Assembly (NCBI GenBank): GCA_965226795.1
Contig: CBDDDZ010000004.1
Coordinates: forward strand, 704,001-768,000
Source of the DNA: Candidatus Latescibacterota bacterium
Lineage (GTDB): Bacteria > Latescibacterota > UBA2968 > GCA-2709665
DNA: 64,000 bases
Direction: 5' to 3'
This document shows, one piece after another, positions 22,929-27,915 of the stretch. How positions within the stretch are numbered: the stretch's first letter is position 1; each line of letters starts with the position of its first letter. The notes under the pieces were generated by a model. The model saw only the letters and a program-made list of their open reading frames with translations, made no database searches and was not told the origin of the DNA. A program made the translations under genes and the position numbers.

Positions 22929-23930
22929 CTATTTCCACTTGAACACAACACCCAGTGCATCACTCGGATCGTCGGCGAGCATCGTATAGATTTCCTCGCA
23001 CTGTTCCGGCTCCGCCACGTGGGTGATGAGGTCTTCAACGGGTAATTTGCCCTCTCCCATCAGGCGCATCACCAGCCGGCGGTCCCGTTCCTTTGCCCAT
23101 CGGTAGTAGATGTGATCGGCCTCCGGCGTTTTGGGCTGGTGGGCGCCCAGGATGCTGACTTCCCTAAGATGCACATCGGCCAGGAAATCCATATCGACGG
23201 TGCCGCGCGGGGAACCCAGCGCAACCACACGGCCAGCCGTGCACGCAAGCCGGACGGCGGTGGGATATACCGAGGGCTTTCCCGTCGCTTCGATAACGAC
23301 GTTGGCGCCGTCATCCACGCAGTGTCGGCCAACCGCCTCCCGGATGTCGTCCACATCGCCGGGATTGATGCAAAGGTCGATGCCGCGGCTTCGCGCCTTG
23401 TCCAGACGAAAGTCGTCGAGATCGATAGCGATTGCCGGCAGGGCGCCGGAGAGTCCCGCAAGCGTCGACGCGAGTTGGCCTACAATCCCCAGGCCGATAA
23501 CGACGACAACCTCGCCCAATTCGATGCGCGCCACCCGGATTCCGTGGATGGCGATAGCGCCCATGACCATGAAAGCGGCGGCTTCGGACGACACGGAATC
23601 CGGAACTCTCTGGTGGAAGGACCTGGGGCCGGAGAGGACGCAGTGGCTGGCGTGGTTTCCCTGTCCGGCTACGCGATCGCCAGGACGGATGCCCTCAACG
23701 TCCTTGCCGACTTCCAGGACCGTTCCGACGTTGCAATAGCCGGTGGCGCGTGGAAAACGAACAGGGTTTCCGGGTTCGCCTCCGTGGGTCCAGCCGTGGA
23801 TCTCCGTTCCGACGCTGACGGCGGTGTACTGGTTTTCGATAAGGATACCGTCATCTGGTACTGACCCCGTCTCGAAGGACGCCAGTTCCATCCGACGGAT
23901 ACCGGGAATGAGGAAACGTGTGGCTTTCAT
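22929..23930 (-). CDS. Medium-chain dehydrogenase (YcjQ-like subgroup)
   Basis: VS.GTE, GYCNVG, G.HASH, GLGIVG, EATG. Confidence 0.85.
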   Translation of the reverse strand: MKATRFLIPGIRRMELASFETGSVPDDGILIENQYTAVSVGTEIHGWTHGGEPGNPVRFPRATGYCNVGTVLEVGKDVEGIRPGDRVAGQGNHASHCVLSGPRSFHQRVPDSVSSEAAAFMVMGAIAIHGIRVARIELGEVVVVIGLGIVGQLASTLAGLSGALPAIAIDLDDFRLDKARSRGIDLCINPGDVDDIREAVGRHCVDDGANVVIEATGKPSVYPTAVRLACTAGRVVALGSPRGTVDMDFLADVHLREVSILGAHQPKTPEADHIYYRWAKERDRRLVMRLMGEGKLPVEDLITHVAEPEQCEEIYTMLADDPSDALGVVFKWK

Positions 23931-24000: not shown

Positions 24001-25038
24001 CTACGCCTGCCCAAGGTCCAGGGTCTCCCGGAAGAGTCGAAGGAAGTTGCCGCCCCAGACTTTCCGGATTTCGTTTTCGGAAAGGCCGCGCGCGAGCATG
24101 GCGCGGGTGAGATGCACGAGCTTTGAGACGTTCTTGACGACGGGTGTGAGCGAACCCATGCCGTCGTAGTCGGACCCGATGGCGACGTGGTCGATACCGA
24201 CCAGGTCCGCCACGTAACAGATATGGTCGACCAGCCGGTCGACGGACGGATTCCCCGGATCGATGAAACCTGGCACGAAGGCGATGCCCATCACCCCGCC
24301 TCCGCCGGCCAGGGCCTTAAGTTGATCGTCAGTAAGGCAGCGCCAGTGGTTGCAGACGGAAAAAACCGCGGTGTGGGTCATCGTCACCGGGAGCGAAGAT
24401 CGTTCAAGAACCTGGAAGAAAGCCCTGTCGTTAACGTGGGCCAGGTCGGTGATGATACCCAGCCGGTTGCTCTCCCGGAGCACGGCTTTGCCGAAGTCCG
24501 TCAGACCGCTGGCGTTCCTGCGTTCACGGTCACGGTCGTCAGGCGTGCACGGTCCAAATGGACTCCTGCTGCCCTGAAGGTAGGCCGGGGCGTCCCCGCC
24601 TTCGCCGTGGGTAATCCCCACGCAGCGCACACCCAGGCGGAAATAGAGACGTAATACATCCATCTCCCCTTCCAGCCAACGACCCGCGCCTTCGATTGTG
24701 AGAAGGATGCCGACTCTGCCGGATTCTTTCGCCCGTTCAACGTCCTGTGATGAGAGCACCAGCATCAGGTCGTCGGGATAACGATCCACCGAAGCCAGGG
24801 TTTGCTCGAGGGTAACCCGAACATTTGCCGTGGGACCGTTGCCGACCACGAAGAAACCGGCGTCGAATCCGCCTTCCCCCATCCGGAGAATGTCGATATG
24901 ATACGCATCGTCCGGTTTTTTCAGGTCCATCGGGCGCTCGCCGCGGTGCACATGTTCCACGGGCGTGTCGTTGTGTCCGTCGACGATAAGGCAGCGATGG
25001 TGGACTGCCTGCGCTTCTTCAAGGGTGATGTCCGGCAT
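24001..25038 (-). CDS. Membrane dipeptidase (peptidase M19)
   Basis: VDGHND, IEG, DLAH, TH, GIDHVAIGSDYDG, GGNFLR. Confidence 0.93.
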   Translation of the reverse strand: MPDITLEEAQAVHHRCLIVDGHNDTPVEHVHRGERPMDLKKPDDAYHIDILRMGEGGFDAGFFVVGNGPTANVRVTLEQTLASVDRYPDDLMLVLSSQDVERAKESGRVGILLTIEGAGRWLEGEMDVLRLYFRLGVRCVGITHGEGGDAPAYLQGSRSPFGPCTPDDRDRERRNASGLTDFGKAVLRESNRLGIITDLAHVNDRAFFQVLERSSLPVTMTHTAVFSVCNHWRCLTDDQLKALAGGGGVMGIAFVPGFIDPGNPSVDRLVDHICYVADLVGIDHVAIGSDYDGMGSLTPVVKNVSKLVHLTRAMLARGLSENEIRKVWGGNFLRLFRETLDLGQA

Positions 25039-25109
25039 GGGAATTGGGTCCTCTGCTGTGGGATAACGGTGTGCCCTTGCGGGTAGGTATGATGCGCTCT
25101 CAGGTCGGT

Positions 25110-26432
25110 CTACGGAGGGTCGACCGGTACGTTCTGGTTCTTGCGGACCAGGGGATCGTATGTAAATCCGTCGGACCGTTTTTCGAACTCGGCGCGCACC
25201 TGTTTCATGTTCTCCGGGCTCCGGCAGAGGTCAACTGCGGTTCCTGCGAAGACTTTGGCGGTCTGCTGGATCGCATGCTCGGCGAAAGGCAGGGCGGCCT
25301 GCGCGGCCATTTCCCGGTGATGGCCAGGCGTTCCCTTTGCATAACAGACCATCTGGAAGCGTCCCAGAGGGGCCAGCCAGGAAACGTTGTCTTCGTCGGA
25401 GGAGCCCCGGCCCTGCGAGCCGCCGCCCTTGCCGATCTTCGTATTGAACCCCTTTTTGTAGCCCAGGGCTTCCACGCGCTTCACGTCAGCTTCCGTCGGT
25501 TCGGGCGGTCCGAAGAGTTTCAGATTTTTTCGAACAATCTCACACATTGACTTGTTGGGCAGACGCGGGTACACGGCGGTGATACGCGACCATTTCATCC
25601 TCGTGTCCGTGGCTCCGGCGGCGCCCCGGGCGCAGGCGGTGAGGCGTTCACGCACTTCGTCTACCTGCGCGCGGTCCTTGCCCCGTACGAAGTACCAGAT
25701 TTTGGCATAGGCCGGCACCACGTTGGGGGCGTCGCCTCCGTTGCGAATGACGGAATGAATCCTGACGTTTTCGGGTACATGCTCCCGGAGGTAGTTGGCG
25801 GCAATATCCGTGAGCATCACCCCGTCCAGGGCGCTGCGGCCCCGGTGAGCCCACGCGCCGTGGGCGGTACGGCCGAAGAATTCGTAAACGACGGAGTCCA
25901 GCGACGATCCCCCGAAATTGTTGACGCCGGAAGAACTCCCCGGATGCCAGGCGAGGCAGGCGTCCAGGTCCCGAAACGCGCCGTCGCGAGCCATATACAC
26001 TTTGCCCGCCAGGGTTTCCTCCGCCGGACAGCCGTAGTAGACGATTTTGCCCGATGTTCCGGTTGATTCGAGGATTTTTGCAGCGGCGACCGCACCCACG
26101 GCCGGGGCAACGCCCAGCAGATTGTGGCCTCAGCCATGCCCCCAGTCACCTTCCTCGGGACCGCAGTTCGGGAGCGCGTCGTATTCCCCCAGCATCCCGA
26201 TCGCCGGTTCTCCGTTGCCCCGGGTCGCTCGAAATGCCGTGGGGATTTTCTTGAAAGAGAATTCGACCTCGAAGCCGTGCGAAGCCAGGTAGTCCGCGAC
26301 CGCTCCCGAGGATTTGACCTCCCGGAAGGGCCGTTCCGCCCAGGCGTGCACCCGCCTGGAAAGGTCCACGGCGCGTTTCGACTCATCCGCTACGGTGCGA
26401 TCGATGAGGTCCTTTTTTTCTTTCGAGGTCAT
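25110..26432 (-). CDS. AbgB-like M20D amidohydrolase (440 aa) with in-frame TGA at the conserved Cys; candidate selenoprotein (or nonsense pseudogene)
   Basis: ORFs 26130..26432 and 25110..26099 are one frame: EYDALP..GHG*GHNLLG..GCPAEE..WHP..GRTAH..NYLREH..PNVVP..TPGH. Confidence 0.8.
26094..26129 (-). promoter_or_regulatory. Putative bacterial SECIS element
   Basis: UGA-GG-CCAC-AAUCU-GCUGGGC-GUU-GCCC(C)GGC-C-GUGG; G-first apical loop 18 nt after UGA. Confidence 0.55.
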
Positions 26433-26543
26433 GACATATCCCTTCTGTAAAAAAACGCCGGTCCACGGTTACTGGAATTGCCGCGTTGGATCGTCAACTG
26501 TTCCGGATCGATCTTCGCCCCGAGTTTTCGAACGGTACATCTT

Positions 26544-26705
26544 GCAGTCCGTTGATAAAGTCGCTCTGCAGGCGGGACCGAGTCATTGTGGCCGAAGACA
26601 AGGCGCGCGACCGAGGCGAATCGGGGGATTCGAGGAGCGAGCGCAACGCCGTAAGTCGGCCACAAGGGCCGGACGCAGCCCGGATGGACTTTTCCAACGG
26701 GCTGC
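26544..26705. mobile_element. MITE-like element (~162 bp)
   Basis: Terminal IRs GCAGTCCGTTGATAAAGTC / GACTTTTCCAACGGGCTGC (16/19) and internal perfect IR TTGTGGCCGA / TCGGCCACAA. Confidence 0.65.
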
Positions 26706-27793
26706 TAGGGATTAACGATGGCATCAACGACCGCGTCGGCCACCTCCGGAGTCGCAGCTGCCCCACCCAGGTCCGCCGGATGGTTTGCCGGATGGACAAG
26801 CGTTCGATCGACGGCGCGGTCAATGGTCTGCGAGGCGGCGGCGGCTTCCGGATCGTTATGGCGGCTGCCCAGCCAGGACAGCATCATCCCCGCGGAGAGG
26901 ATCTGGGCTATGGGGTTGGCGATGCCCTTCCCGGCTATATCGGGGGCGGTACCGTGGGAAGGCTGGAAGACGCCGTAACGATCGCCTACGTCGGCCGAGG
27001 GCGCCATACCCATCCCGCCGATAGTAGCTGCGGCCAGGTCCGAAATGATGTCCCCGAACATATTTTCGGCAACGACAACGTCGTACCACGCGGGGTTGCG
27101 TAACTGGTACACGGTGAAGGCGTCCACGTAGGCATAATCCCGTTCGATGTCGGGATAGGATTCTGCAACCTCGTCGTAGATCTGCCTGAAAAAGGCCATG
27201 CTTTTCAGAATGTTGGCCTTGTCCACCGAGGTGACGCGACTCTTACCGTCGGCGGGCGCCCCCTTCCGTTGCTTCGCGATTTCAAAGGCGTACCGTACAA
27301 TCCGCTCGGTACCGGCGCGGGTGATGACCATATTGTCGACGGCGAGACTGTCGCCGAGGCGAACCCCGGCGCCGCGGGAGGCGTAAAGGCCTTCGGTATT
27401 CTCGCGCATAATGACGTAGTCGAGCGGCGGATTCCCTTCGAGAAGCGGAGGCACGCCGCGATATTTTTTGATGGGCCGGATCCCGGCGTAAAGGTCGAGT
27501 ACGAAGCGCAGTGTCAGTTGCGGAGCGATTTCCGTGCCGTCCGGAAATCGGATATCGGGATCGCCCGCGGAACCGAAAAGGACGGCATCGGCCTGCTTGC
27601 ATGCATCGAGCGTGGGATCGGGCAGGTCATTACCGGTTTCGGCGTAACACCTGGCGCCCACCGGGTGTTCCGAAAAGGCGAATCGGAGATCTGGAAGCGG
27701 CTCCTCGAGCGCCAGAAGGACTTTGAGTGCTTCCGCGACCACTTCCGGGCCGACGCCGTCTCCGGGGAGTACGGCGATGTTGTACGTTGGCAT
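26705..27793 (-). CDS. Isocitrate/isopropylmalate dehydrogenase-family decarboxylating dehydrogenase
   Basis: PGDGVGPEV, RENTEGLY, VDKAN, NMFGDI.SD, HGTAPDIAG..ANP; ATG at 27793. Confidence 0.92.
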   Translation of the reverse strand: MPTYNIAVLPGDGVGPEVVAEALKVLLALEEPLPDLRFAFSEHPVGARCYAETGNDLPDPTLDACKQADAVLFGSAGDPDIRFPDGTEIAPQLTLRFVLDLYAGIRPIKKYRGVPPLLEGNPPLDYVIMRENTEGLYASRGAGVRLGDSLAVDNMVITRAGTERIVRYAFEIAKQRKGAPADGKSRVTSVDKANILKSMAFFRQIYDEVAESYPDIERDYAYVDAFTVYQLRNPAWYDVVVAENMFGDIISDLAAATIGGMGMAPSADVGDRYGVFQPSHGTAPDIAGKGIANPIAQILSAGMMLSWLGSRHNDPEAAAASQTIDRAVDRTLVHPANHPADLGGAAATPEVADAVVDAIVNP

Positions 27794-27828
27794 GCACGCC
27801 CTCTCAAGGTATGTTGAACGTTGAAAAC

Positions 27829-27915
27829 AGCGAAACGCGGGCATTTCGACAAGCTTGCTTCGACAAGCTCAGCACAGGCAATGACCACGCTTCGACAGGC
27901 TCGTTTCGACAGGCC
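27829..27915. repeat. TTCGACARGC repeat cluster, dispersed family copy 1
   Basis: Four units at 27845, 27859, 27891, 27905; matches 57781-57818 in reverse orientation. Confidence 0.75.

Follow-up and report, generated by a model that had tools for sequence, protein, structure and literature searches.

A probable selenoprotein gene of the M20D amidohydrolase family in Latescibacterota, with an in-frame UGA at a predicted metal-ligand position

The window examined here, a stretch of 64,000 nucleotides from a Candidatus Latescibacterota genome, contains on its minus strand two open reading frames that share one frame, resemble the two parts of a single amidohydrolase and are separated by a TGA. 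The question raised by this locus is whether the gene is broken or whether the UGA is read as selenocysteine (Sec) at a position where related enzymes have a cysteine predicted to bind metal. The explanation we strongly favour is an intact selenoprotein gene, with Sec101 acting as a metal-bridging ligand of an M20D hydrolase.

Translation of the frame from 26432 to 25110 gave 440 residues with a single internal stop, the TGA at codon 101, around which the translation reads EYDALPNCGPEEGDWGHG*GHNLLG. Standard ORF calling leaves the gene in two pieces, of 100 aa and 329 aa. The initial annotation, made from the sequence alone, had described two pieces joined by a lone TGA at codon 101, and the 440-residue translation bore this out. 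The motifs it listed (PAEE, WHP, AH, PNVVP and the C-terminal GH) are all intact in the read-through translation, and its statement that there is no further lesion holds more widely, as no second stop was found in any of the 55 TGA-containing genes described below. The features of the gene are as follows.

25110..26432, minus strand: M20D (HmrA/PM20D2/AbgB-like) amidohydrolase gene, 440 aa with the UGA read through (TIGR01891, PF01546, PF07687, structural model and fold search)
26130..26132, minus strand: in-frame TGA, codon 101, putative selenocysteine, in the column of HmrA Cys93 and PM20D2 Cys142 (alignment; PM20D2 numbering as in the PDB sequence file)
26437..26445, minus strand: purine-rich stretch resembling a ribosome-binding site and preceding the ATG (read from the sequence)

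Four of 22 listed public runs (X3, X7, X8 and X9) were compared with the window. Single contigs from three of these, belonging to three studies (X3, X7 and X9), span codon 101, and no difference at 26130–26132 was among those listed for them; X8 had no listed piece over the codon and counts neither way. The TGA, which was to be verified in read data, is thus kept unchanged in contigs of three independent runs. Contigs from RNA libraries also cover the gene, though this is not taken as showing transcription.

The read-through protein scored above the cut-offs of TIGR01891 (184 bits; cut-off 153.75), PF01546 and PF07687, with both the M20 catalytic domain and the dimerisation domain matched (PF01546 and PF07687). 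The best match in a fold search with a metal-free AlphaFold2 model (pLDDT 94.8; 75-row alignment, Cys at 101) was the M20D enzyme HmrA of Staphylococcus aureus (PDB 3RAM; TM 0.83, rmsd 1.9 A, E 1e-35), and the human M20D enzyme PM20D2, a beta-alanyl-lysine/Xaa-Arg dipeptidase (PDB 7YH4), has the same fold (TM 0.79). The likeness extends to the predicted ligand set, which comprises H-x-C-G-H, PAEE, HP and a C-terminal H. The protein differs from both in having UGA/Sec for Cys, in its low identity (24–26%) and in a 7-residue insertion that carries Cys90. In the M20D motif GH-x-C-GH, the TGA codon falls at the position of HmrA Cys93, and the other predicted active-site residues, with HmrA numbers counted along the printed alignment, are listed here together with Cys90.

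26163..26165, minus strand: Cys90, invariant in the subfamily (75/75 and 55/55 sequences) and absent from HmrA and PM20D2 (alignment gap)
26124..26126, minus strand: His103, predicted metal ligand, equivalent to HmrA His95 (alignment; His in 55/55 Sec genes)
26016..26021, minus strand: Glu138-Glu139, predicted general base and metal ligand, equivalent to HmrA Glu128/Glu129 (alignment)
25944..25946, minus strand: His163, predicted metal ligand, equivalent to HmrA His156 (alignment)
25320..25322, minus strand: His371, predicted metal ligand, equivalent to HmrA His341 (alignment)

His103, Glu138, Glu139, His163 and His371 are kept in all 55 Sec genes, in which the Cys column is UGA, and Cys90 is invariant in Sec and Cys forms alike. 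In HmrA, we take Cys93 to bridge the metals with His95, Glu129, His156 and His341 as ligands, and the counterparts of His103, His163 and His371 are presumably metal ligands there. According to the accessible text of PMC11511702, water is activated by a Glu in M20 enzymes, which bind a pair of divalent ions, and a Cys bridges two zinc ions in the M20D enzyme CsAga. The roles of Glu138 and Glu139 as base and ligand are predicted, partly by analogy with that account. It is highly probable that Sec occupies a ligand position in an M20D hydrolase.

The enzyme is one of uncultured marine bacteria; relatives 67–94% identical to the protein are recorded as Candidatus Latescibacterota and, for some, as Gemmatimonadota. 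A survey of 168 genomes of the phylum (threshold E <= 1e-60) yielded 76 matches in 73 genomes. One TGA and no other stop was present in 55 of the 56 matches with at least 67% identity, and this TGA was at codon 101 in every one (55/55). The 55 genes are 68–100% identical to the gene and come from 13 genera in three families of a single class. The matches free of stops were one in genome G154 (67%) and 20 others at 35–43% identity, and all 66 distinct non-TGA loci compared have TGC or TGT at that column. The same residue is Cys in all 103 motif-bearing proteins among the best 120 database homologues, the others being 15 fragments that begin past the stop and two full-length proteins outside the motif pattern. 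The alternation of TGA and Cys codons that had been suggested as a check in relatives was therefore found. The Cys-type sisters (AbgB-like; Latescibacterota, Planctomycetota and others) belong to the gene's own family, with 55–76% identity and equal length and motifs; they have TGC/TGT or Cys in place of the TGA, and the Cys genes for which DNA was examined are without the RNA constraint downstream that is described below.

A motif scan of metagenomes produced 71 loci, 33 of them M20D genes, and the TGA pattern was repeated in 32 M20D loci with 68–89% identity and the same downstream DNA. The remaining 38 loci were rejected as they are not M20D genes and the alignment never exceeded 200 residues; three matches from soil look like chance overlap with other genes. 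A distant M20D gene (L203:1510, 33% identity) has a TGA as its sole stop, again in the Cys column, and lacks the hairpins; this TGA could be either an independent gain of Sec or a nonsense mutation. Two genomes have a second, distant stop-free M20D gene (G116:C231 and G120:C148, 36–37% identity) alongside the Sec form, and tblastn found one distant M20D paralogue (27%) elsewhere in the source genome.

The initial annotation had also asked for the Sec machinery, and selA, selB, selC (tRNA-Sec) and selD are all present in the genome, which is 95.9% complete. The selA (563 bits), selB (370 bits) and tRNA-Sec (73.6 bits, TCA anticodon) genes adjoin one another on contig C5, while selD is on C4 and has its own single TGA in a UxxK motif. 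Only one tRNA with a TCA anticodon was found in the genome, and it scores as tRNA-Sec. Among the genomes that carry the TGA form, selA is present in 54 of 55; the exception (G032, 91% complete) has a tRNA-Sec, a selD containing a TGA and, where a contig ends, an incomplete selB. No match to selA, selD or full-length selB was found in G154 (86% complete), which has the Cys orthologue, or in its congener G155 (90% complete), and the tRNA-Sec search gave only weak tRNA matches in both. The carrier genomes are related rather than independent, so this tracking of the TGA form with selA amounts to a pattern rather than to a statistical test.

Profile searches, which were used for the selenoprotein inventory as two ab initio coding-potential scans were too noisy for use, revealed more in-frame TGAs in fdhA, in four of 18 AhpC-TSA matches and in two of three Rdx matches. 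The seven loci (four AhpC/TSA-type genes at C3:20364-20852, C3:27942-28328, C4:882455-882940 and C5:1051929-1052276, together with fdhA and two Rdx/SelW-like genes at C5:1515183-1517186, C5:46284-46502 and C5:3015859-3016071) are probable selenoprotein genes. Each has a hairpin with a G-U loop after the UGA, and the copy at C3:20364 contains a further TGA that no such hairpin follows. The TGA scan also picked up one short sequence in several spaced copies at C5:3031697-3034289, which suggests a CRISPR-like repeat array.

The RNA downstream of the UGA was compared across the 55 genes. The consensus fold consists of two hairpins side by side (positions counted from the UGA):

26105..26115, minus strand: candidate SECIS hairpin A, +15..+25, with a GGGC/GCCC stem and a 3-nt loop whose first base is G at +19 (paired in 55/55 genes)
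26087..26104, minus strand: hairpin B, +26..+43, with a 7-bp stem and the loop RGGU at +33..+36 (99.7% of cells paired, 55 genes)

The initial annotation had drawn one hairpin, with an apical GGGC-GUU-GCCC part whose loop lies 18 nt past the UGA and a lower CCAC/GUGG stem. The apical hairpin is present and paired in all 55 genes, and hairpin A may reach +13..+28. The lower stem fared less well, with only 64% of cells paired, and the outer pair G12-C29 forms in just 9 of the 55. A single long minimum-energy hairpin was also rejected, with 93% of cells paired and a break at +26:+33 in 38/55 genes.

The strongest indication of an RNA element is the pattern of synonymous change. Of 139 four-fold degenerate sites scored across the 55 genes, only four are invariant (codons 107, 109, 111 and 114, 18–39 nt past the UGA), and the eight with the lowest entropy are all within codons 100–114. 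The seven four-fold sites in codons 107–114 changed eight times in total on the tree, against a median of 11 changes per site, and none of 20,000 shuffles was as low as this run of sites. Low synonymous change after the UGA is repeated in the 32 metagenome loci. The same sites change freely in 20 Cys genes (45–67% identity), in which codons 107 and 114 changed seven and eight times, respectively, where the median was six. The VAPA peptide encoded by the hairpin is also found in the protein records of close Cys forms, so part of the constraint acts on the protein, and the peptide is either older than the SECIS or a remnant that survived it.

Published criteria for bacterial SECIS elements, in the accessible text of PMC13188914, are a loop of 3–9 nt, a stem of 4–16 bp, a G at loop position 1 or 2, a loop 16–37 nt past the UGA and an energy of -7.5 kcal/mol or lower. 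Both hairpins fall within these limits, hairpin A with its loop 17–18 nt past the UGA and -9.6 kcal/mol, and hairpin B with its loop 32 nt past the UGA and -9.7 kcal/mol. These criteria are loose and the synonymous constraint is the stronger evidence. Compared with shuffles, the folding energy of 40–78 nt stretches was not unusual (z = +0.6 to +1.2) and that of the whole element did not stand out (z = -0.9); hairpin B by itself gave z = -2.7, for a stretch picked after the alignment had been inspected. Covariation is sparse: change on both sides of a pair, from G-C to A-U, was seen in one pair of 11, in hairpin B (3/23 rows), and the score was matched by 8 of 500 shuffles; most pairs, including all those of hairpin A, are invariant. 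Two wobble sites of hairpin B, +30 and +39, form a pair and are invariant.

In the selD, fdhA, AhpC-type and Rdx genes of the genome, G-U or G-G-U loops are found +18 to +23 after the UGA. Hairpin A is the likelier SelB site, since the position of its loop matches these other Sec genes. In one Sec gene of the 55 (L116, 2467-2520, minus strand, in genome G083), and in no other, loop A is ACA, with Val108 changed to Thr; the G of the loop is lost and both stems are retained. As this gene is without the loop A G, hairpin B may contribute, possibly as a part of the conserved element that makes a second contact with SelB.

The relationship between Sec and Cys forms was examined in a FastTree phylogeny of 98 rows and in an IQ-TREE analysis of a 36-row subset (17 Sec, 19 Cys; LG+G4) in which the bootstrap had not fully settled. 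In the 98-row tree, the Sec forms other than L203 all fall in a single region of weak support that also contains Cys forms. On the 36-row tree, the Sec/Cys label requires five changes, at least three of them forced by well-supported branches, and two Cys proteins (P0003 and P0012, the Cys state of such rows being taken from protein records) are nested in a supported group alongside 11 Sec forms. A Sec-only clade was rejected (AU p = 0.0007, 36 rows), and with it a single origin without loss on this tree. Most simply, Sec would have been gained once in this Latescibacterota class and then have reverted several times; there may instead have been several separate gains of Sec. The Cys gene of G154 was also considered as a reversion, which is unsupported as it groups with Cys forms.

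Our proposal for how the gene works begins with SelB and the Sec-tRNA, which would bind the RNA element just 3' of the UGA. The contact is most likely with hairpin A, and hairpin B would belong to the same SelB-bound element. Codon 101 would then be read as selenocysteine to give the full-length protein, a dimeric or tetrameric M20D hydrolase. In its active site, the bridge between two divalent ions (Zn, Mn or Co) would be a selenolate instead of a thiolate, the remaining ligands being His103, Glu139, His163 and His371, and Glu138 would activate a water for cleavage of an amide bond. The substrate is probably an N-acyl amino acid or dipeptide from a small-molecule breakdown pathway, and no redox turnover by the selenium would be involved. 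Sec has a lower pKa than Cys and resists irreversible oxidation, and the likeliest benefit would be a fully ionised metal ligand resistant to overoxidation.

Several other explanations were weighed against this proposal. An error in assembly or base calling has some precedent in the window, where a base at position 25046, in the spacer between the M20 gene and the adjacent M19 gene, is absent from the contigs of all four runs compared and is probably an assembly insertion. At codon 101 itself, contigs of three independent runs read across without a listed difference, and the TGA recurs in 54 other genomes; the retention of TGA in this column by 55 genomes of 13 genera is not chance. TGA is the commonest stop in the genome, ending 812 of 1582 long ORFs, or about half, and where it does so the median distance to the next stop is 27 codons, similar to that after TAA and TAG, which argues against a genome-wide alternative code. 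We consider the chance of either an error or an alternative code to be negligible. The frequent use of TGA as a stop, and the existence of both pieces as database proteins, would fit a true stop that leaves a pseudogene or a split gene with functional pieces of 100 aa and about 330 aa. A split would remove two predicted ligands, at residues 101 and 103, yet His103 and its neighbours change only synonymously, and codons 102–105, with only such changes, must be translated. No further lesion occurs in the 55 genes, the most divergent of which is 68% identical. On these two points both the split gene and the pseudogene fail, and the RNA constraint sits exactly 3' of the TGA. A true stop is thus extremely unlikely, and we regard the gene as almost certainly a real selenoprotein gene.

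The amino acid inserted, and its role, could also differ from those proposed. The UGA might be decoded as Cys in a SelB- and SECIS-dependent way, or partly as Cys under selenium shortage, given that non-canonical selC*-type tRNAs can insert Cys at UGA and that many close relatives, some of them nested among Sec forms, work with Cys here. The only tRNA with a TCA anticodon scores as tRNA-Sec and is beside selA and selB, and the TGA form tracks selA, making this very unlikely. If Sec is inserted, its role could be redox or regulatory, such as a reversible Se-S bond with Cys90 or Se-dependent expression, instead of or besides metal bridging. Redox enzymes make up most of the known selenoproteins (PMC13188914, accessible text), and Cys90 is invariant in the subfamily and missing from HmrA and PM20D2. 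It is, however, just as invariant in the Cys forms, and residue 101 is in the column of HmrA Cys93 with every other predicted ligand kept. A redox or regulatory role is therefore rather unlikely, and Sec101 as a metal-bridging ligand remains the reading we prefer.

Sec is a metal ligand in FdhA/FwdB (Mo/W) and in [NiFeSe] hydrogenases, and it is predicted to be one in SaoB, SaoC and MbdU (PMC13188914, accessible text). FdhA/FwdB and the [NiFeSe] enzymes likewise have Sec in place of a metal-binding Cys and a bacterial SECIS just past the UGA. All of these are oxidoreductases or metal-handling proteins, in which the reported partner of Sec is Mo/W or Ni, whereas the M20D enzyme would be a Lewis-acid hydrolase with Sec as the bridge between two ions. 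The initial annotation had called a Sec ligand in a hydrolase unusual, and this stands only in part. The bridging position would be new, but Table 1 of PMC13188914, in its accessible form, already includes predicted hydrolase-like selenoproteins, namely a glutamine amidotransferase related to the CTP synthase C-terminus (GxUxG) and two UshA-like families. These also have Sec in a hydrolytic family without a redox name, and have different folds. The Cys of the amidotransferase family is a nucleophile and not a bridging metal ligand. As hydrolase-like selenoproteins had been predicted before, the new point would be Sec at a dimetal-bridging position and not a non-redox setting alone. On balance, this would probably be the first natural enzyme with a genetically encoded selenolate bridging both metal ions of a Lewis-acid hydrolase.

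The terms M20, peptidase, hydrolase, amidohydrolase and Latescibacter are absent from the 119 prokaryotic families in the accessible Table 1 of that 2026 review (PMC13188914). None of them was found in the main text or four supplementary files of deep-Sep (PMC12013277) or in the main text of a 2022 review (PMC9312934), and a search that took in little of the subscription literature found no papers on a selenoprotein amidohydrolase, a selenoproteome peptidase or a selenoprotein AbgB. Among the five NCBIfam 20.0 models that match the protein, none is Sec-specific. The M20D selenoprotein family is thus apparently uncatalogued so far, an absence that is not proven, and it adds to the prokaryotic selenoproteome a family missing from the catalogues checked. 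Public databases carry both pieces of the gene as separate proteins, the NCBI names being 'peptidase dimerization domain-containing protein' or 'amidohydrolase', the former a misnomer.

If selenium bridges the dimetal site, its behaviour as a ligand is set apart here from its redox chemistry, a distinction relevant to the open question of what Sec is for. The Sec and Cys versions are 70–76% alike and, if they have indeed switched several times, form a natural pair for comparing selenium with sulphur outside redox chemistry, so that ordinary kinetics, measurement of metal content and assays of resistance to oxidation could address the ligand question. With its near-total synonymous constraint, the pair of hairpins offers a clean case for mapping SelB recognition in this lineage.

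The neighbouring genes were compared across families f1, f2 and f4:

26705..27844, minus strand: upstream neighbour, a LeuB/tartrate-dehydrogenase-like beta-decarboxylating dehydrogenase, often adjoining the gene in families f1 and f2
24001..25038, minus strand: downstream neighbour, an M19 dipeptidase-like gene, adjoining the gene in family f1 only
22929..23930, minus strand: downstream neighbour, a zinc-dependent (MDR) dehydrogenase, at most f1 and several f2 loci

None of the LeuB-like, M19 and MDR neighbours is present at f4 loci. The neighbours suggest small-molecule catabolism and name no substrate. Close Cys homologues carry the automatic JGI label 'aminobenzoyl-glutamate utilization protein B'. 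AbgB has AbgA as its partner and AbgT as its transporter in PABA-Glu hydrolysis, and inspection of the neighbours noted no abgA or abgT at the loci examined. Upstream of the gene, at 26540-26710 of the window, is an intergenic inverted repeat of about 165–170 bp. It has 29 blastn matches in the genome, many near full length and 87–95% identical, has high depth in the compared runs and looks like a MITE or REP-type repeat.
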